Source of the DNA: Minisyncoccia bacterium | GTDB taxonomy: Bacteria > Patescibacteriota > Minisyncoccia > SW-4-49-11 | Length of the DNA stretch: 64,000 nucleotides | Direction: 5' to 3' | NCBI GenBank assembly: GCA_044356725.1 | Contig: JBIKVS010000001.1 | Span: 2,839 to 66,838 of the forward strand | Part shown: positions 17,306 through 51,462 of the stretch, piece by piece | Layout: every line of letters starts with the position of its first letter | How positions within the stretch are numbered: position 1 is the first letter of the stretch | The notes under the pieces: model-generated | Told to the model about the DNA's origin: nothing | The model's input: the letters and a program-made list of their open reading frames with translations, nothing else | The model's database searches: none | Translations under genes and position numbers: made by a program

Positions 17306-17908
17306 ATGAAAGGAATAGTTTATATAATGACAACCGTAGTCGATGGGCTTATCAAAATAGGGCAGACAGGAAGTCAGAACTATCAAGAGCGGATGAGACA
17401 TCTTGAGTCAAATGGATACTATAATGTCTCAGGATTAAAGAGATTTTTTGCAATTGAACTAGAAGATTATATTTACAAAGAAAATCTACTCAAAGAAATT
17501 TTCAATAAGCATAGAGTAGCAGATAGTGAGCTATTCGCCCTAGACTATGATTTGGTAAGGCAATTATTACTATCTTTTGAAGGCAAAGTAATATATCCAA
17601 AAGACATAGACAAAGAAAAAGAATTTGATGAAGTAGCAAAATCCAGAGAACAAAGTGCAAAATTTAGTTTTTATAAAAAAGGCATTCAAAATGGAGAAGA
17701 AATTGTCTTTATCGCCGACAAAGACATAACAGCAAAAGTAGTAGGGGAAAGAGATGTAGAATATGGAGGACAAATTTATAAACTATCCCCATTAACCCTC
17801 AAAATATACCAACAAAAAGGCAATAGTAATAAAAGTGGAGCCTATCAAGGAGCAGCCTATTGGCAATATAAAGGAAAGAAATTAAAAGATTTACCGGATA
17901 GGGGGTAG
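17306..17908 (+). CDS. T5orf172 (GIY-YIG-like) domain protein with a C-terminal DUF4357-like region.
   Basis: GIVYIMTTVVDGLIKIGQTGSQNYQERMRHLESNG...FFAIELEDY matches the T5orf172 pattern. C-terminal AYWQYKGKKLKDL resembles DUF4357. Confidence 0.55.
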   Translation: MKGIVYIMTTVVDGLIKIGQTGSQNYQERMRHLESNGYYNVSGLKRFFAIELEDYIYKENLLKEIFNKHRVADSELFALDYDLVRQLLLSFEGKVIYPKDIDKEKEFDEVAKSREQSAKFSFYKKGIQNGEEIVFIADKDITAKVVGERDVEYGGQIYKLSPLTLKIYQQKGNSNKSGAYQGAAYWQYKGKKLKDLPDRG

Positions 17909-23982: not shown

Positions 23983-24832
23983 TCAAACAAGAAAAATTAA
24001 GGTAGAAGGCAAAGAGATTACATTATTTGTTGAGAATGATAATGATTTTATTTCTCTTACCGATATATTAAAATCAAAAGATGGAGACTTTTTTATTTCT
24101 GATTGGTTACGAAATAGAAATACATTAGAGTTTCTAGGGGCTTGGGAACAATTAAATAACCCCGATTTTAATTATGGCGAATTCGCCATAATTAAAAATC
24201 AATCAGGATTAAATAGCTATAAAATTAGTGTCAAAGAATGGGTACAAAAGACCAATGCAATAGGATTAAGAGCAGTAGCTGGTCGTTATGGAGGCACTTA
24301 TGCACATAAAGATATTGCCTTTGAATTTGGGATGTGGATTAGTCCAATGTTCAAACTGTATCTCATTAAAGAATTCCAAAGACTCAAAGAAGAAGAAAAT
24401 AGACGATTAGAACTAGGTTGGGACTTAAAACGAGACCTAACAAAAATTAACTATAAAATACACACAGATGCTATCAAAGAACATATTATTCCAAAATTAA
24501 CAAAAAAAGACATTAAATTTGTATATCCCAGTGAAGCAGATATTTTGAATAAAGCACTCTTTGGAATGACTGCAAGTGAATGGAAAGAAAAAAATCCAGA
24601 TAAAAAAGGAAATATGCGAGATTCAGCCGATGTTTATCAATTGGTATGTCTTGCCAATCTTGAGACTCATAATGCCGAATTTATTGAACAAGGACTAACT
24701 CAAGCAGAGAGGATATATAAGTTGAATACAATTGCCATAAGACAAATGAAGTCATTAACTACAAATATCCAAGTAAAATCATTAGACCAGAAAAGCAAAA
24801 AAATGATAGAGTCTAAGGAGGAGGGGATATGA
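23975..24832 (+). CDS. KilA-N domain protein embedded in the R-M operon.
   Basis: KEITLFVENDNDFISLTDILKSKDGDFFISDWLRNRNTLEFLGAWEQLNNPDFNYGEFAIIK...GRYGGTYAHKDIAFEFGMWISP recalled as the KilA-N family seen in type I R-M loci. Its start overlaps the hsdM stop and its stop overlaps the hsdS start. Confidence 0.6.
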   Translation: MSNQTRKIKVEGKEITLFVENDNDFISLTDILKSKDGDFFISDWLRNRNTLEFLGAWEQLNNPDFNYGEFAIIKNQSGLNSYKISVKEWVQKTNAIGLRAVAGRYGGTYAHKDIAFEFGMWISPMFKLYLIKEFQRLKEEENRRLELGWDLKRDLTKINYKIHTDAIKEHIIPKLTKKDIKFVYPSEADILNKALFGMTASEWKEKNPDKKGNMRDSADVYQLVCLANLETHNAEFIEQGLTQAERIYKLNTIAIRQMKSLTTNIQVKSLDQKSKKMIESKEEGI

Positions 24833-26064
24833 GTAAAAAAGTAATACAAATTGGTAAAATAGCAAAACTTAATTTTAAAACACTTCGTGAAAGTGATAAT
24901 TTATCTGTAATTCAGTATCTAGATACAGGAAATATAACTAAAGATGAAATACAAAATTTACAGATACTAAACATAAAACAAGGTAGATTTCCAAGTAGAG
25001 CTAAAAGAAGAGTTAAAGAAAATACTATTATTTACTCCACGGTTAGACCAAATCAAAAACATTATGGTATCTTAAAAAGTCCAAATAAAAATTTAATTGT
25101 TTCAACTGGATTTACAACAATTGACATCATTAATAAAAAAAATGATCCAAAATTTATTTATTATCTTTTAACTCAAAACCAAATTACAGAACATCTTCAT
25201 AAAATAGGAATGAACGGGACTTCTTCTTACCCTTCAATTAAACCTGAAGATATTGGTAATTTGAAATTTATAATTCCAGAAAACATTCAAGACCAACAAA
25301 AAATCGCCTCTGTATTCTCAACAATTGATTCTAAAATCGAACTCAATAACAAAATCAATACCGAGCTCGAGCAAATGGCAAAAACCCTCTACGACTACTG
25401 GTTCGTACAATTTGATTTCCCAGTCCCTAAAAATTCCCCTCTTGAGGGGTGGACAGCTTCGCTGGACGGGGTGGAAGAAACAAAACCCTACAAAACCAGC
25501 GGCGGAGCAATGGTCTATAGCCAAGAACTAAAAAGACACATCCCCAAAGGCTGGGAGGTGAAGAAAATTAGTGATTTATTACCAGTAATTACAGGGAAGC
25601 AAGATGCAAATTTTGCTACCGAAAATGGAGAATATAATTTTTTTACTTGTGGAGAGGAAATCTTAAAATGTAATTCATACGAATTTGAAGGGAAGGCTGT
25701 TTTGATTGCAGGAAATGGAAATTTTGGGATCAAATTATATGAAGGAAAATTTAATGCCTATCAGCGAACATATATTCTAATGCCAAACAATGAAAAGCAT
25801 TACACTATTATTTATCTTGCAGTAAAAGATAAAATACAGTCTTTCAAAAATAGTTCTCGTGGTTCAATTATAAAATTTATAACAAAAGGAGATATAGAAA
25901 ATATTTTAATTCCTTTGCCAAAAGATAAGGATTTAGATGTATTTACTCAGCTCAATAATATCACAGAGAAAATTGAAAAAAATCTTGAAGAAAATCAAAA
26001 GCTTGCTGAGCTTAGAGACTTTCTCTTACCAATGCTTATGAATGGACAGATAGTAGTGGAGTAG
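24829..26064 (+). CDS. hsdS: Type I R-M specificity subunit with two target-recognition domains.
   Basis: Position in the operon; two-TRD architecture with conserved central and C-terminal coiled regions. Confidence 0.8.
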   Translation: MSKKVIQIGKIAKLNFKTLRESDNLSVIQYLDTGNITKDEIQNLQILNIKQGRFPSRAKRRVKENTIIYSTVRPNQKHYGILKSPNKNLIVSTGFTTIDIINKKNDPKFIYYLLTQNQITEHLHKIGMNGTSSYPSIKPEDIGNLKFIIPENIQDQQKIASVFSTIDSKIELNNKINTELEQMAKTLYDYWFVQFDFPVPKNSPLEGWTASLDGVEETKPYKTSGGAMVYSQELKRHIPKGWEVKKISDLLPVITGKQDANFATENGEYNFFTCGEEILKCNSYEFEGKAVLIAGNGNFGIKLYEGKFNAYQRTYILMPNNEKHYTIIYLAVKDKIQSFKNSSRGSIIKFITKGDIENILIPLPKDKDLDVFTQLNNITEKIEKNLEENQKLAELRDFLLPMLMNGQIVVE

Positions 26065-28206: not shown

Positions 28207-28827
28207 ATGAAAATATATATCGATGAATCAGGTTCATTAGGGGTTAGGAGTAAAAATCAATATTTTGTATTGGCAGCTTTAGTTTGTCATAATAAAGTTG
28301 CTGATAAAAAGTTAAAGCAATTAGGTAAAAATATTTATAAAGAGTATTTAGCCCCCAATAATCTACAAGAGATACATGCTACTCATACTAGTTTTCCAGT
28401 TAAACAAAGAATATTGAATAAGATTGCTAAAATTCAAGATATTACAATATATTATTTGGCTGTAGAACAAGATAAAATACATAAGAATTTAATATTATAT
28501 CCTAATATTTGCTATAACTATCTAATTGGGTTGCTTTTGGAAGATATTATATTAGAGGCTCAGAACAATGTGGATATTATTTTGGATAATCATAGTACTA
28601 AAGTAGGTTCACTTAATTCTTTACATGAGTATTTGAAAATCAAAGCATTTACAGAATGGGGGCATAATTATAATTTTAGGTCTCAATTTATGGAATCTCA
28701 TAAGGTATGGGGTATTCAAATGATAGATGTGATTGCCAACTCTATTTTTACTCATTATAATTATAATAAAAGTTCTTTATATAAAATTACAAAGCATTAT
28801 TATAAATCAAAGAAATTTCCTTATTGA
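28207..28827 (+). CDS. DUF3800 family protein.
   Basis: N-terminal MKIYIDESGSLG resembles the DUF3800 YIDESG start. Confidence 0.5.
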   Translation: MKIYIDESGSLGVRSKNQYFVLAALVCHNKVADKKLKQLGKNIYKEYLAPNNLQEIHATHTSFPVKQRILNKIAKIQDITIYYLAVEQDKIHKNLILYPNICYNYLIGLLLEDIILEAQNNVDIILDNHSTKVGSLNSLHEYLKIKAFTEWGHNYNFRSQFMESHKVWGIQMIDVIANSIFTHYNYNKSSLYKITKHYYKSKKFPY

Positions 28828-28930
28828 CATTTTATATATAATGGTATACTATTGATTTAGAGTAAGTCCATTGTGGAGTCCTAATGTGGATAATCGTACT
28901 ATAAGTGCGACGAAATAATGGCATCAATAT

Positions 28931-28960
28931 AAACCACCTTGCGGGGTGGTTTTTTGTTTT
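28931..28960 (+). terminator. Rho-independent terminator CCACC-TTGCGG-GGTGG followed by TTTTTTGTTTT.
   Basis: Read directly. Confidence 0.7.
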
Positions 28961-29042
28961 AGTATAATTTATAATTAAACTAAATCCACCCCGTCAGGCT
29001 AAGCCTGCCACCCCTCAAGAGGGGAATTTTAACACAAAATAC

Positions 29043-29151
29043 AGGCGACTGGAAGGTCGCCCCTACAATTCATAATTAACATTAATCCACCACCGGCACT
29101 TCGTGCCACCTCCTCCAAAGGAGGACAGAAAGAATTCACAATTCATAATTA
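29043..29151. repeat. GC-rich repeat cluster. A type-1 hairpin GGCGAC-N6-GTCGCC-CCTAC lies at 29043-29066. A 61-bp double-hairpin element (GGCAC-TTC-GTGCC and CCTCC-TCCAAA-GGAGG) at 29079-29139 is flanked by 12-bp direct repeats AATTCATAATTA at 29067-29078 and 29140-29151.
   Basis: Copies of both motifs recur at 40372-40500 and 51434-51462. Confidence 0.6.
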
Positions 29152-29155
29152 TTCC

Positions 29156-37756: not shown

Positions 37757-38317
37757 TTATTTTGGCCAATTATCTGGATGTAGGGAGTCTAATTGCCAAT
37801 TAATAGGGTTATTTATAATATAATTTTGAACTCTCAACAAATCAGTTTCATTACGAATAATATGGTCATAGAAAGATTTTTGCCAAAATGTATTATATTT
37901 ATTTATTATATTTTTCGTAGAGTCGGCGACCTCGCCGACATTATGATTATTGTATTTTTTTACATTCCTCAATGATATTTGTTTAAAACTAGAGATTATG
38001 TCTCCCAAAGAAACTTTTTTATTAGTAGCTAAAGAATATGAATTTTTGTCTATACCAATTATTCCATGAAAATGATTTGGCATTAATACATATCTATCTA
38101 ATTTAATATTAGAATAATACTTTGGTATATCAAGCCAAGTACTTTCTACAATATTTCCAATATTATTTAATTTAAATTTATAAACATCTTCGATATATGT
38201 CGGCGTGGTCGCCGACTCTACGAAAATACATTTCATATCATAGACACATATAGTCACAAAATACCAATAACCCCCAAGATATAATTCTTTTGACAATCTG
38301 TGTCGTTGTCTTTTCAT
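37757..38317 (-). CDS. REP-associated tyrosine transposase (RAYT / IS200-like TnpA_REP) with two in-frame REP-like insertions.
   Basis: YLGGYWYFVTI (compare Y.GG.W.FT in RAYTs); HuH motif YVLMPNHFHGII; C-terminal WQKSFYDHIIRNETDLLRVQNYIINNP (compare WQPRFWEHAIRN...YI.NP). Confidence 0.7.
   Translation of the reverse strand: MKRQRHRLSKELYLGGYWYFVTICVYDMKCIFVESATTPTYIEDVYKFKLNNIGNIVESTWLDIPKYYSNIKLDRYVLMPNHFHGIIGIDKNSYSLATNKKVSLGDIISSFKQISLRNVKKYNNHNVGEVADSTKNIINKYNTFWQKSFYDHIIRNETDLLRVQNYIINNPINWQLDSLHPDNWPK
37916..37943. repeat. REP-like palindrome TCGTAGAGTCGGCG-ACCT-CGCCGACAT inside the RAYT coding sequence, encoding NVGEVADST.
   Basis: Codons mapped one by one. The same unit occurs at 40507-40534 and 51401-51427. 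Confidence 0.7.
38195..38224. repeat. Second REP-like palindrome ATGTCGGCG-TGGT-CGCCGACTCTACGAA inside the RAYT coding sequence, in the opposite orientation, encoding FVESATTPTY.
   Basis: Codons mapped one by one. Confidence 0.7.
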
Positions 38318-40371: not shown

Positions 40372-40536
40372 CAGTCCTCCTCCGTCACCTACGGTGCCAC
40401 CTCCCCCAAGGGAGGACAGTTCTTATTTTGTCTCCCTTTTTAACTGCCGTAAGTAGTTGGAGGGAGTACCCGTGGGGGGCAACAGAAGGTCGCCCCTACG
40501 AAAATTATGTCGGCGTGGCGCCGACTCTACGAATAG
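40372..40536. repeat. Mosaic GC-rich repeat cluster. In order: the double-hairpin element (GGTGCCACCTCCCCCAAGGGAGGACAG), a degenerate type-1 hairpin ending AGGTCGCCCCTACGAAA, and the REP palindrome ATGTCGGCG-TGG-CGCCGACTCTACGAAT at 40507-40534.
   Basis: Aligned by eye to the copies at 29043-29151, 37916-38224 and 51401-51462. Confidence 0.65.
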
Positions 40537-40560
40537 TGCAAGGATAAACCCTCCGCTACG

Positions 40561-40594
40561 AGAAAAAGAAAAAAGCCCCGCTGAGTGCGGGGCT
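40561..40594 (-). terminator. Terminator AGCCCCGC-TGAGT-GCGGGGCT for the 40612..41196 gene.
   Basis: 8-bp GC stem plus an A-tract on the plus strand. Confidence 0.55.
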
Positions 40595-40611
40595 TGGGTG
40601 AGTGAGAGCGA

Positions 40612-41196
40612 TCAGTAATCAATGAGGATTTGGATTATCCTTAGCATGGGTCCGATATGAGAGAGCAGGAAGCAACTAACCTGCTGGGAAAGAACATCAT
40701 AGGCATTGAGGTGCTCCATGCCGGAGAAACCCCAACCACCCTTTTTCTTGTCCCTCCGCTGTTTCCAGTATGAGACAGAATGGGTAGGTATACCATAGAT
40801 GTCATAGATGTCATAGAGTAATACTCGATCTTCTGTGACTGTTTCCCCCCTCTTCGTACGATTCCAACCGTACTCACTTCTGCCTGCGTTGACGAAGTGA
40901 ATCTGAAGCACCTCCAGTGCCTCGATCAATAGGGTGTATTGCCCCCAATTGACAGTCTTGAAATCCTTGATGAGATCACGGATTTCGCCGCTTCGGTCGT
41001 GCCACCTTGACACTTGGTCAAAGAACGGTACGATAGCACATATTGGATCAGATTCAGATGCTCGCTGTAATCGCTGTAGTTCGTTGCTAAGTTCCATTAG
41101 CTCCGGAACCAGCTTCTTAAGCTTATCTTTTGGTGAAGAACGTAGCATGCTGATCCGCTTACGCAGGTGCAGGGGGCTTTCGATGGTGATAGCCAT
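40612..41196 (-). CDS. Hypothetical protein with clearly elevated GC (about 47%).
   Basis: 194-aa ORF with its own terminator; no family recognised. Confidence 0.45.
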   Translation of the reverse strand: MAITIESPLHLRKRISMLRSSPKDKLKKLVPELMELSNELQRLQRASESDPICAIVPFFDQVSRWHDRSGEIRDLIKDFKTVNWGQYTLLIEALEVLQIHFVNAGRSEYGWNRTKRGETVTEDRVLLYDIYDIYGIPTHSVSYWKQRRDKKKGGWGFSGMEHLNAYDVLSQQVSCFLLSHIGPMLRIIQILIDY

Positions 41197-49915: not shown

Positions 49916-51334
49916 TTGTATAAAGTAAAAATAATAAATATGAATGGCTCAAATATGAAAAAACAGAGTAAAGGTTTTACACTCCTAGAAATACTTTTAA
50001 CTATAATGCTAATTGGGATATTAGCAACAATAGTACTTGTAGCAATAAATCCTAATAAACAGATCTCACAATCAAGAAATCTTGTTAGAAAGGCAGATAT
50101 AAATAGTATATATAATGCTTTGCAGCAATACAACGCTGTTAATAGAGGGGTTTCAAATTTCAATATATCCAATAATTATACTGAGATATGTGATACAGGA
50201 AGTCTTACTACAGAAGATAGTCTGCCAAGTACAAACTATTGTGATGGTAAAATTGACTTAAGAGCATTAGTTCCTACGTATTTAATTGAAATTCCAAAAG
50301 ATACTGATACTTCATTAGGTGGTACCGGATATGAACTAGCAAAGGATTCTAATAATCAGACTAGCTTAAGGTCTAATAAAGAAGAGCTGTCTCAGATTGT
50401 AGCAATAAATCCACTGCCAACCCCCGAAGAATTAATTCAAGCTCAGATAGCGGCAGGGACATTAATACCAACAGGGACACAACAATTAGTCTTAGATAGA
50501 TTAGTATATAAGAACAATGCAGGAACTCAGACATATATAGATAAGTCCACAACTACAAGAACCTGTCCAGCTAATTATATTCCAGTCCCAGGGAATAGTA
50601 TGTATGGAACTAGTGACTTTTGTGTAATGAAGTACGAAGCTAAAACAGGGTCCGCCACAGTTTCAGCCACAACACAAACAGCAGGAAACCCACAAGTAAA
50701 TATAACTCAACCAAATGCCATCACAGCCTGTAGTTTAAACGGAGCAGGATATGGACTAATCAATAATAATGAATGGATGACCATAGCCAGGAATATAGAA
50801 GGACAAGGAGTCAACTGGACAGGAGGAGCAGTAGGCAGTGGAGGTTTATGGCGAGGACATAGTGATGGAAGTCCAAATAATGTATTAGCAGCAAGTACAG
50901 ATGACAATGATCCATACTTTGGAACAGGAAACACCAGTCCAAGCATAGAGAGAAGAACCCATACCTTAAGTAATGGAGGAGTAATCTGGGACTTAAGTGG
51001 GAATGTCTGGGAATTTACCAATAATACCATATTAGGAAAAGACCAACCAACAGGAACTACTCCAGGATTTAATTGGAGACAATATACAGCAATAACTAAT
51101 TATGGAACTTTAAGTTATGACCTAACCCACCCAAGTAATACTAGATGGAACAGTAGTCAGAATATGGGACAAATATACAGTGATGGAACAAGTACTAACA
51201 ATACAACTTTCGCCTTCATCCGCGGTGGTGATTGGGATGGTGCTGATACTACTGCAGGAGTATTTACTCTTCGCCTTCATCTTACTCCCGCCTCTACGTT
51301 TACTAGTATTGGCTTCCGCTGCGTTCTGCGCTGA
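49916..51334 (+). CDS. Type IV pilin-like protein with a C-terminal FGE-sulfatase (formylglycine-generating-enzyme family) domain. Likely start at the Met at 49955 (MKKQSKGFTLLE).
   Basis: Class III signal KGFTLLEILLTIMLIGILATIV. C-terminal WDLSGNVWEF...IRGGDWDG...IGFRCVLR, compare YDMSGNVWEW...RGGSW...GFRCA. Confidence 0.6.
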   Translation: MYKVKIINMNGSNMKKQSKGFTLLEILLTIMLIGILATIVLVAINPNKQISQSRNLVRKADINSIYNALQQYNAVNRGVSNFNISNNYTEICDTGSLTTEDSLPSTNYCDGKIDLRALVPTYLIEIPKDTDTSLGGTGYELAKDSNNQTSLRSNKEELSQIVAINPLPTPEELIQAQIAAGTLIPTGTQQLVLDRLVYKNNAGTQTYIDKSTTTRTCPANYIPVPGNSMYGTSDFCVMKYEAKTGSATVSATTQTAGNPQVNITQPNAITACSLNGAGYGLINNNEWMTIARNIEGQGVNWTGGAVGSGGLWRGHSDGSPNNVLAASTDDNDPYFGTGNTSPSIERRTHTLSNGGVIWDLSGNVWEFTNNTILGKDQPTGTTPGFNWRQYTAITNYGTLSYDLTHPSNTRWNSSQNMGQIYSDGTSTNNTTFAFIRGGDWDGADTTAGVFTLRLHLTPASTFTSIGFRCVLR

Positions 51335-51400
51335 GGGGCAACTGGCTCCTCTGCCTAAGTTAGACAACTCTGGGAGCCAGTGAGCTCAGTAATTCGTCAT

Positions 51401-51462
51401 TCGTAGAGTCGGCGCCCCCGCCGACATTTACATTTCGTAGGGGCGACCTGCCAGTCGCCTGC
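51401..51462. repeat. REP palindrome TCGTAGAGTCGGCG-CCCC-CGCCGACAT followed by a type-1 hairpin (GTAGGGGCGAC-CTGCCA-GTCGCCTG) in the pilin/pgk intergenic region.
   Basis: Aligned to the copies at 37916 and 40507, and to 29043 in reverse orientation. Confidence 0.65.

Follow-up and report, generated by a model that had tools for sequence, protein, structure and literature searches.

How does an AT-rich genome come to carry dense clusters of GC-rich hairpins between its genes, and do these hairpins belong to a mobilising enzyme encoded nearby? The question is raised by a 64-kb stretch of a Patescibacteria-type genome, referred to here as the window; all positions are those of the window, L-numbers denote loci from relatives and metagenomes and P-numbers denote homologues of the enzyme in question. 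The GC content of the window is 33% and the named cluster sites form local GC islands within it. The original prediction described three related hairpin types at three intergenic sites and took them for an organisation resembling bacterial interspersed mosaic elements (BIMEs), acted upon by an adjacent REP-associated tyrosine transposase (RAYT, or TnpA_REP). All three types are present at these sites, none being expected there by chance, and the surrounding gene context was recovered through Pfam (ATP-synt_D, PGK and, in a further protein, a pilin-type methylation motif at the N-terminus) and confirmation of the tRNA-Thr. The analysis indicates that the clusters are probably piles of short non-autonomous palindromic DNA repeats from at least five families, comprising repetitive extragenic palindromes (REPs) tied to a RAYT and a separate double-hairpin family (Table 1).

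Three of these families, REP-a, REP-b and REP-c, are classical GTAG-tagged REPs, a class of palindromes of 20-40 bp whose GC-rich stems allow a hairpin to form. REP-a is composed of TTTC-GTAG-A-GTCGGCG-(3-4 nt)-CGCCGAC-AT and has a 7-bp stem. The stems of REP-b (TTTC-GTAG-G-GGCGAC-(5-6 nt)-GTCGCC-TG) and REP-c (TTTC-GTAG-C-GGAGGG-TTTAY-CCCTCC) are 6 bp long, and the flank TTTCGTAG is common to all three. In every copy GTAGA, GTAGG or GTAGC is found immediately 5' of the stem, usually preceded by TTTC. REPs handled by RAYT/TnpA_REP proteins are characterised by a GC-rich hairpin that has a conserved GTAG at its 5' foot (PMC2817692, PMC3733652, PMC3333891), and the units were thus rightly predicted to be REP-type repeats. 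The hairpin previously listed as type 2 does exist, but its description had to be amended as it is a GTAG REP on the opposite strand, TTTCGTAGG-GGCGAC-N6-GTCGCC, corresponding to REP-b.

Counts of the repeats in the window far exceeded those expected. The REP-a pattern GTCGGCG-N3-5-CGCCGAC occurs in four exact copies (37922, 38199, 40509 and 51408), against 0 expected from 100 dinucleotide shuffles, and GTCGCCCCTAC, the type 2 or REP-b pattern, occurs in three (29056, 40489 and, on the minus strand, 51437) at an expectation of 0.05. The type 3b core CACCTCCYCCRARGGAGGACAG has two copies (29107 and 40398; 0 expected by chance), and the window counts of the type 3a pattern and the REP-c consensus likewise stand against roughly 0 expected. 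In total the window holds 8 REP copies, 2 of them within the open reading frame (ORF) of the RAYT. All reported units fold as single-stranded DNA into hairpins in the manner predicted, with energies mostly 2-5 standard deviations below those of shuffled sequences; for the REPs the energies lie between -6 and -9.5 kcal/mol, with most z-scores from -2 to -5.

The make-up of the clusters was also revised. The cluster reported at 40372-40536 was confirmed, but it extends to 40562 on account of a decayed third REP and includes an additional hairpin module. A module akin to the latter closes an array in L134 (about 1030-1075). The decayed REP-c has an intact counterpart at the matching relative position in the syntenic L038 (2915-2936), and REP-c is intact in L065 too. 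Type 3 units measure about 45 nt and not the 60 bp initially given, and their sister subfamily 3a, present once beside the 29-kb cluster and once within hsdS, had been overlooked.

Table 1. Repeat units, the RAYT gene and associated features of the 64-kb window.
Feature	Position	Strand	Description
Type 3a unit in hsdS	25430-25475	-	In-frame insertion in ORF 24829-26064; with flanks encodes VPKNSPLEGWTASLDGVEET
Type 3a unit	28984-29030	+	ATCCACCCC-GTCAGGC-TAA-GCCTGCC-ACCCCTC-AAG-AGGGG-AATTTT
REP-b	29042-29069	-	AATTGTAGG-GGCGAC-CTTCCA-GTCGCC-TG; downstream of V-ATPase D gene
Type 3b unit	29085-29128	+	ATCCACCACC-GGCAC-TTC-GTGCC-ACCTCCTCC-AAA-GGAGGAC-AG
RAYT / TnpA_REP	37757-38317	-	186 aa, intact ORF; HUH motif NHFHGII, tyrosine motif WQKSFYDH, YIINNP
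Embedded REP-a, site 2	37914-37942	+	In frame, encodes NVGEVADSTKN; between HUH and Y; inverted relative to site 1
Embedded REP-a, site 1	38197-38225	-	In frame, encodes FVESATTPTY; upstream of HUH motif
Type 3b unit	40374-40419	+	GTCCTCCTCC, hairpin 1 GTCACC-TAC-GGTGCC (one T.C mismatch), ACCTCCCCC-AAG-GGAGGAC-AG
Extra hairpin module	40432-40466		CTCCCT...AGGGAG with inner AACTGCC/AGTT stem; -6.6 kcal/mol, z -2.4; weakly supported
REP-b, slightly decayed	40477-40504	-	TTTTCGTAGG-GGCGAC-CTTCT-GTTGCCC; one stem mismatch
REP-a	40507-40534	-	ATTCGTAGA-GTCGGCG-CCA-CGCCGAC-AT; also terminator-like in scan
REP-c, decayed	40538-40562	-	CTCGTAGC-GGAGGG-TTTAT-CCTTGC; 3' arm mutated; 3 mismatches to consensus, 0 expected
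Intrinsic terminator of ORF 40612-41196	40573-40595	-	Not a repeat-family member; kept in relatives without the cluster
REP-a	51400-51427	+	TTCGTAGA-GTCGGCG-CCCC-CGCCGAC-AT; 66 nt past stop codon of ORF 49916-51334
REP-b	51433-51461	+	TTTCGTAGG-GGCGAC-CTGCCA-GTCGCC-TG; head to tail behind REP-a

The RAYT expected in the vicinity of the clusters was identified as ORF 37757-38317 and is the only one in the window. A total of 532 homologues were found, several of which are called RayT by JGI. When an AlphaFold (AF2) model of the protein (pLDDT 83) was compared with PDB structures, the best match was 4er8_A, in which the E. coli RAYT is complexed with a REP hairpin; the TnpA proteins of IS608 and ISDra2 ranked next. 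Comparison with the syntenic orthologue in L033 resulted in a dN/dS of 0.19 and the gene is therefore under purifying selection. By its motifs the protein is a TnpA_REP of subclass 2.4. Proteins of this subclass are about 194 aa long and share the motifs NH[IFV]H, WQ and YIxNNP, and in-frame REPs within tnpAREP, generally located between HuH and Y, are unique to it (Quentin et al. 2018, PMC6006769). The window RAYT has NHFH, WQKSFYDH and YIINNP within its 186 aa, and an in-frame REP between HuH and Y as well.

No extragenic REPs flank the gene; instead, REPs sit inside the ORF. The two intragenic REPs noted previously are indeed present, with the added detail that both lie in frame within the RAYT ORF itself, where they form an inverted pair 255 nt apart. 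The site 2 peptide coincides with the lowest-confidence loop of the model, which is peripheral. Both sites are insertions because distant homologues lack the two segments. The type of REP that is embedded corresponds to the RAYT lineage. In a DNA alignment the syntenic RAYT of another strain (L069) has REP-c, and a third lineage (L068) a REP-b-like unit, at the same two in-frame inverted positions, and REP-a was found within RAYT orthologues or paralogues of L033, L035, L036 and L067. Peptide signatures of REP-a, REP-b, REP-c and further REP types recur across the list of homologues. REP-a is thus the probable cognate repeat of the window RAYT, whereas REP-b and REP-c would belong to sister RAYT lineages, none of which is represented in the window. 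REP-a alone can be called the RAYT's own because it alone is embedded in that ORF, and the proposal that all units make up the substrate set of the adjacent RAYT was not upheld, REP-b and REP-c being embedded in other RAYT lineages. Two of the four REP-b and REP-c copies in the window are decayed, which fits the absence of cognate RAYTs from the window but is only suggestive.

Further embedded repeats were observed in the wider family. Among homologues P0033-P0036, P0067 and P0097, some carry a short peptide in 3-7 tandem copies at site 2, for example QKETGFIV and GRGVKSG, and many other homologues have peptides resembling palindrome-coded ones (VGNGLKPFPT, VGTTHELSLQ, VGARHASPL). The embedding of repeats is therefore a broad and apparently ongoing phenomenon. 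Peptides coded by type 3 units were found in none of 120 RAYT homologue sequences.

Copies of the repeats were found in other genomes through scans for REP-a and type 3b, so the motifs are not unique to the window, as had been anticipated. A strict REP-a pattern was scanned among GTDB species representatives (596 Gb), which resulted in 61 loci. Roughly half of these were singletons in unrelated, mostly high-GC taxa. Their number is in the range estimated for chance, where multiplying 5.96e11 / 4^19 for the 19-base pattern by 2 strands and 3 loop lengths gives about a dozen, and more in GC-rich genomes, and they were set aside. The remaining loci were in low-GC Patescibacteria metagenome-assembled genomes (MAGs), with 11 strict copies in Paceibacterota P_PACE2, 7 in Parcubacteria ZE-Oct18-75 and 6 in bin.49. 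In the related MAG loci REP-a is adjoined by REP-b, REP-c and type 3 units.

Two of the REP-a-bearing genomes are syntenic and about 80% identical to the window. The site of the 40-kb cluster is empty in L033, which has a terminator (about 728-760) followed by an AT-rich spacer, and in L038 it is filled differently, with REP-a and REP-c accompanied by two 3a units and a REP-b stub. L032 carries a cluster of four units (REP-a, REP-b, 3a and 3b) upstream of its 17306-17908 orthologue, a place at which no units are present in the window. In L023 the orthologous pilin-like gene is followed by a REP-c in decay and a REP-a in inverted orientation, an arrangement unlike that of the window. Orthologous sites that are either empty or differently filled point to turnover of the repeats. 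An independent metagenome contig (L001) that is 100% identical to the window ends within the 3b units at 29101 and 40401, as is typical where an assembler fails to get past a repeat.

The remaining families, 3a and 3b, make up the double-hairpin type 3, which on sequence grounds appears to be separate from the REPs. Type 3 units have conserved flanks and a first hairpin that is free in sequence yet complementary. The three types had been described as related, and this applies to types 1 and 2, which are both GTAG REPs, but not to type 3, which has no conserved GTAG tag and no visible kinship to REPs. A metagenome scan employing the 3b core gave at least 120 loci, and the figures that follow cover the loci listed. 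These contained at least 140 copies of 3b in mostly low-GC sequence (median GC 36% among the matches listed), and at least 6 dispersed copies were found on one 286-kb contig. The 3b consensus is [A/G]TCC[T/A]CC[T/A]CC, hairpin 1, ACCTCCYCC-RAR-GGAGGAC-AG, and 3a is built as TCCACCCCG, hairpin, CCACCCCTCAAGAGGGGAATTTT. Hairpin 1 of 3b was found with at least 15 different perfectly complementary stems, such as GCCC/GGGC, GGCAC/GTGCC, GTCACC/GGTGAC, GGCC/GGCC and versions of 10-11 bp. In 58 distinct copies, 94.2% of cells were paired compared to 83.4% in shuffles, none of 500 shuffles reaching the observed value, and double-change cells amounted to 81 compared to 35.6. Controls with slid partners paired in only 44-57% of cells. 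Hairpin 2 has one variable pair (UA 34, CG 21, UG 3), and both 3b hairpins are supported by covariation. An outer helix GTCCTCC/GGAGGAC was also considered but is unsupported, as the 3' arm is invariant and roughly half of the copies have ATCCACC, which breaks the pairing.

Type 3b units are mostly intergenic, occur alike in convergent, divergent and unidirectional spacers and have no orientation bias relative to flanking genes, based on crude ORF calls. This indifference argues for selection on DNA structure over transcript. The 3a unit in hsdS lies in the linker before the second target-recognition domain of an intact ORF of 411 aa. The window protein reads FDFP-VPKNSPLEGWTASLDGVEET-KPYKTSGG where the homologue in L136 reads FEFP-DKDG-KSYKSSGG, and as the latter is without the approximately 16 extra residues, the unit is a true in-frame insertion.

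Two other identities for type 3 were considered and rejected. CGTC-tagged REPs have a CGTC tag, an 8-9 bp stem with AT pairs at the first and second positions, a 4-5 nt loop and a CCA tail (PMC3733652). CACC, a CCA-like tail, is present in hairpin 1 of type 3; its stems however are GC-rich and 4-7 bp long, and CGTC is found in some copies only, others having CGGC or CGCC. A phage origin was not supported by scans of viral contigs, which gave 2 matches for type 3b and 0 for REP-a. One of the two, an IMG/VR contig (L190, 895-995), contains a complete 3b unit with a GGCGC/GCGCC hairpin 1 stem, and about 20 nt past it a hairpin ending in CTACGAAAG that resembles a reversed GTAG-tagged REP of another type. 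A tRNA gene was observed at most 600 nt from a 3b unit in 9 of the 60 loci L070-L129 (L070, L080, L084, L092, L094, L097, L106, L111 and L116). This is an estimated few-fold above random, but both sit in non-coding DNA and the excess may be trivial.

Within the clusters the units are ordered. Orientation was counted for unit pairs within 120 nt of each other. All 8 REP-a/REP-b pairs and all 4 REP-a/REP-c pairs had the same orientation, as did 17 of the 3b/3b pairs (1 opposite) and 21 of the 3a/3b pairs (5 opposite). Type 3 units were mostly on the strand opposite to the GTAG reading of neighbouring REPs (39 vs 13). The REPs follow the order c-a-b at a period of 29-33 nt, both at 40562->40477 in the window, with the a-b part recurring at 51400->51461, and in L032, L038, L054, L057 and L065. 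A BIME is defined by REPs in alternating orientation (PMC2817692). The clusters resemble BIMEs in being mosaics of REP types with other motifs (3a, 3b and additional modules). They do not qualify as BIMEs, however, because adjacent REPs that differ in type run head to tail without exception, and the BIME-like organisation of the original prediction was consequently abandoned. The intergenic clusters also contain no inverted REP doublets of the kind that would make them REPINs (REP doublets forming hairpins), the only inverted pair being the one within the RAYT.

A 14-bp direct repeat, ACAATTCATAATTA, around the 3b unit at 29085-29128 was considered as a target-site duplication and rejected, since the motif AATTCATAATT/AATTATGAATT recurs beside unrelated copies and therefore represents another module. 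This AT-rich motif was seen next to 3b units at 29064-29077 and 29139-29152 of the window, at 3393-3403 of L032 and in L096, L101 and L133. Longer arrays of up to roughly 400 bp were observed in L127 (4826-5190) and L134 (690-1075). These include a GTCCCTCGC-NGGC-GAGGGAC hairpin, the linkers AAGCTCAAGTTGCAAAATAC and TTAGCTCA, and variants of REP-b and REP-c with nested insertions in their loops.

A mechanism may be proposed by analogy to E. coli TnpA_REP and the TnpA of IS200/IS605. The RAYT would bind the REP hairpin on single-stranded DNA and use the GTAG foot to place the cut, upon which the unit would be rejoined, copied or moved. Any existing REP would offer the shared TTTCGTAG flank, so that new units would land beside old ones in the same orientation and c-a-b arrays would build up. 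Type 3 units accumulate together with the REPs at the same intergenic landing sites, and some REP-a and REP-c copies, having a hairpin and a T-rich tail, may have been co-opted as terminators.

The RAYT locus itself has a fixed position, with the gene for the CCA-adding enzyme on one side and the V-ATPase operon on the other, and was found in three states across strains. It holds a REP-a RAYT in the window and L033 and a REP-c RAYT in L069. In the latter (1040-1625 compared to window 37880-38245) the gene ends are 92-98% identical to those of the window, while the stretch spanning the embedded REPs is 45-67% identical. In L038, from Paceibacterota P_PACE2, there is a remnant (about 600-640, corresponding to window 37863-38218) from which the gene centre is deleted, an internal TTAC/GAA being joined to the CTAC/GAAAA of the REP. 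P_PACE2 keeps two more RAYT copies (L035 and L036), each with 3-4 embedded REP-a units. Judging from protein sequence only, the homologue P0009 looks like a possible recombinant, in which a window-like peptide gives way to one of the REP-c type at the FV residues for which TTCGTAG codes. The identity pattern of L069 together with P0009 suggests exchange of a central cassette. It is conceivable, though we consider it doubtful, that each RAYT carries its own recognition hairpin twice in its coding sequence and that the hairpin-to-hairpin core constitutes an exchangeable specificity cassette. If so, a cassette swap would change which REP family is amplified, the c-a-b arrays would record successive waves of amplification, and type 3 would be a second, so far undescribed, widespread structured repeat family.

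Some features of the units could also be accounted for by a role in RNA. GTAG-first REP-a and REP-b have a GC hairpin followed by a T-rich tail, and a terminator scan picks up 40525-40509(-), 29062-29043(-) and 51408-51425(+); type 3a in turn terminates in CCCCTC-AAG-AGGGG-AATTTT. All three intergenic REP groups of the window are co-directional with the gene whose 3' end precedes them, as are 19 of 28 REP-a and 16 of 19 REP-c copies across loci. Nonetheless, it is unlikely that the units are cis-acting RNA elements, that is intrinsic terminators or 3'-end mRNA stabilisers kept for expression, and not mobile DNA. REP-b (21 of 43 co-directional) and type 3b (43 co-directional, 55 opposite) have no orientation bias, 18 of the 3b copies in the loci listed lie between divergent genes, and a conserved terminator distinct from the units comes before the 40-kb cluster. 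In-frame copies inside the RAYT and hsdS ORFs, as well as the empty orthologous sites in relatives, also speak against it. A function in RNA would agree with some copies having been exapted at a later time, though not with how the units originated. A single ancestral element was considered as well, all unit types then being fragments of one composite MITE (miniature transposable element with inverted repeats) of 300-400 bp of which the window holds deletion derivatives only. The recurring module order and linkers AAGCTCAAGTTGCAAAATAC and TTAGCTCA of the long L127 and L134 arrays fit this, as do the recurrence of the c-a-b order across several genomes and the prevailing strand of type 3 opposite to that of neighbouring REPs. 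Such an origin is very unlikely given that every REP type also occurs alone, each embedded alone in a different RAYT lineage, and that cluster make-up differs at every site and between orthologous sites. The many hairpin 1 stems of 3b fit long independent histories better than one master copy.

The arrays could finally be transcribed and processed to small structured or guide RNAs, as a TIGR- (tandem interspaced guide RNA) or CRISPR-like array or a new non-coding RNA family. This was judged extremely unlikely, even though the units are collinear in arrays, the structure of 3b covaries and the variable pair of hairpin 2, where U.G accounts for 3 cells and C.A for none, is a hint that one strand is the functional one. 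TIGR systems have in fact been found in Parcubacteria, and comprise an adjacent Tas (Nop-domain) gene and an array of 36-nt units with edge and loop repeats, UG...CCA boxes and variable spacers (PMC12045711). A TIGR array was rejected here as the two ORFs flanking the 40-kb cluster have no Pfam family, and so no Nop domain, and as the 36-nt dual-repeat periodicity is missing. Units moreover occur as dispersed singletons, within ORFs and in either orientation relative to genes. Rfam searches of the window at the gathering threshold, of two clusters by E-value and of seven array-bearing loci passed tRNAs only, and sub-threshold matches to mir-4900, whalefall-1 and GcvB (17-22 bits) were taken as chance. 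The possibility raised initially of a known structured RNA was thereby addressed, no Rfam family being matched by the units. None of these alternatives explains the in-ORF copies, the lineage-specific pairing of REP and RAYT and the empty orthologous sites as well as do REPs and their RAYTs.

A number of observations weigh against attributing the clusters to REPs and RAYTs. The window RAYT scores 62.3 bits (E 4e-17) against NCBIfam REP_Tyr_transpos (NF047646), under the 80-bit equivalog cut-off, and 18.8 bits against Pfam Y1_Tnp (PF01797), under the cut-off of 23. Its action on REP-a is a prediction drawn from sequence correspondence. Co-occurrence with RAYT genes in related genomes had been proposed as a check and holds for REP-a, which is carried by the RAYTs of L033, L035, L036 and L067, but not for type 3b, as a RAYT is present in 1 of the 120 type 3b loci listed and has an internal stop. 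A link between type 3 and RAYTs is accordingly conjecture. The RAYT in question (L176, 3103-3714) is a REP-a-type gene with a stop codon directly after the HUH motif, and is either a pseudogene or reflects a sequencing error. Strict REP-a loads of 6-11 in each related MAG are far below classical REP loads, and the repeat counts for the source genome cover the 64-kb window only. Loci of the REP-a scan were selected by REP-a and metagenome loci by type 3b, so that co-occurrence figures are biased, and near-identical metagenome contigs inflate the counts, duplicates having been removed by exact context only. Head-to-tail REP dimers are, furthermore, rare or absent in most REP-bearing genomes (PMC3733652), and the insertion model outlined above is therefore not the standard one.

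Two further features adjoin the clusters. ORF 40612-41196 (-), encoding 194 aa beside the 40-kb cluster, has a GC content of 47.7% and a GC content at third codon positions (GC3) of 0.54 compared to 0.28 in the adjoining cysS. Neither Pfam nor NCBIfam gave a match to it. The ORF is absent from the syntenic L033 and L038, which have other GC-rich sequence there, and its place looks like a variable spot near tRNA-Thr. At 28839-28963 (+), directly 3' of a DUF3800 gene (28207-28827), there is a weak match to the DUF3800-I RNA motif (21.8 bits compared to a gathering threshold of 44.2, E 0.38), and a terminator-like hairpin follows at 28931-28952.

Most of the work on REP/RAYT systems concerns Proteobacteria. 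Patescibacteria genomes are tiny and AT-rich, and GC-rich selfish repeats stand out in them for this reason. A literature search of limited scope found no description of REP/RAYT in Patescibacteria (also known as the candidate phyla radiation, CPR). Subclass 2.4 hosts have been given as Cyanobacteria, Bacteroidetes and 'various phyla', and the word Parcubacteria is absent from the main text of that study (PMC6006769). The repeats are of practical consequence as they break metagenome assemblies, L001 with its two ends in 3b units being an example. The gene of every RAYT lineage contains a REP type particular to that lineage, which would allow enzyme and substrate to be paired from sequence and could guide the biochemistry of hairpin recognition. 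The head-to-tail arrays and untagged double hairpins are unlike standard REPINs and BIMEs and may point to another insertion preference or a second mobilising activity.

Compared to known systems, the window shares with the E. coli REP/BIME system and its TnpA_REP (4ER8) GC-rich hairpins with GTAG at the 5' foot, intergenic mosaics of several REP types and a single-copy HUH/Y1 enzyme. REPs of E. coli BIMEs alternate in orientation (PMC2817692), whereas those of different type in the window are head to tail; the window host is moreover of the Patescibacteria type at 33% GC, and its RAYT carries REPs within the ORF and is not flanked by them. The likeness to subclass 2.4 (PMC6006769) extends to motifs, similar size, and the in-frame REP between HuH and Y, which in the window protein falls in a low-confidence peripheral loop. 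Unlike its published members, the window RAYT has a second embedded REP upstream of HUH that is inverted relative to the first, and the same two positions are occupied by another REP type in each of three sister lineages. As in the Pseudomonas REPIN-RAYT system (Bertels and Rainey 2011, PMC3116915), a single-copy, seemingly vertically inherited RAYT is found at a syntenic locus together with cognate REPs, but Pseudomonas REPINs consist of two REPs in inverted orientation around a short spacer (PMC3116915), and such doublets are absent from the window clusters. Intragenic REPs such as the Rickettsia palindromic elements (Di Nocera et al. 2013, PMC3733652) are in-frame palindromes that leave the ORF unbroken, like those of hsdS and the RAYT here. 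Their sequences are unrelated to those of the window, and the GC stems of 4-7 bp in 3a and 3b differ from the 8-9 bp stems of the CGTC family, which open with AT pairs. The intergenic mosaic elements of Neisseria (dRS3 / CGTC-1) are large mosaics in which one family is interleaved with others (PMC3733652), similar to the window. They are made of other repeats, however, and those of the window have no link to phage integration, judging from the scans of viral contigs. GTAG REPs, RAYTs, in-ORF REPs of subclass 2.4 and intragenic in-frame palindromes are thus already known kinds. New here are the host clade, the head-to-tail arrays of multiple REP types, the abundant untagged double-hairpin family and the paired inverted REPs of lineage-specific type at two fixed positions of the RAYT. 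The basic picture of REPs is unchanged by these findings, which describe selfish DNA of an already known kind in arrays of unusual architecture.

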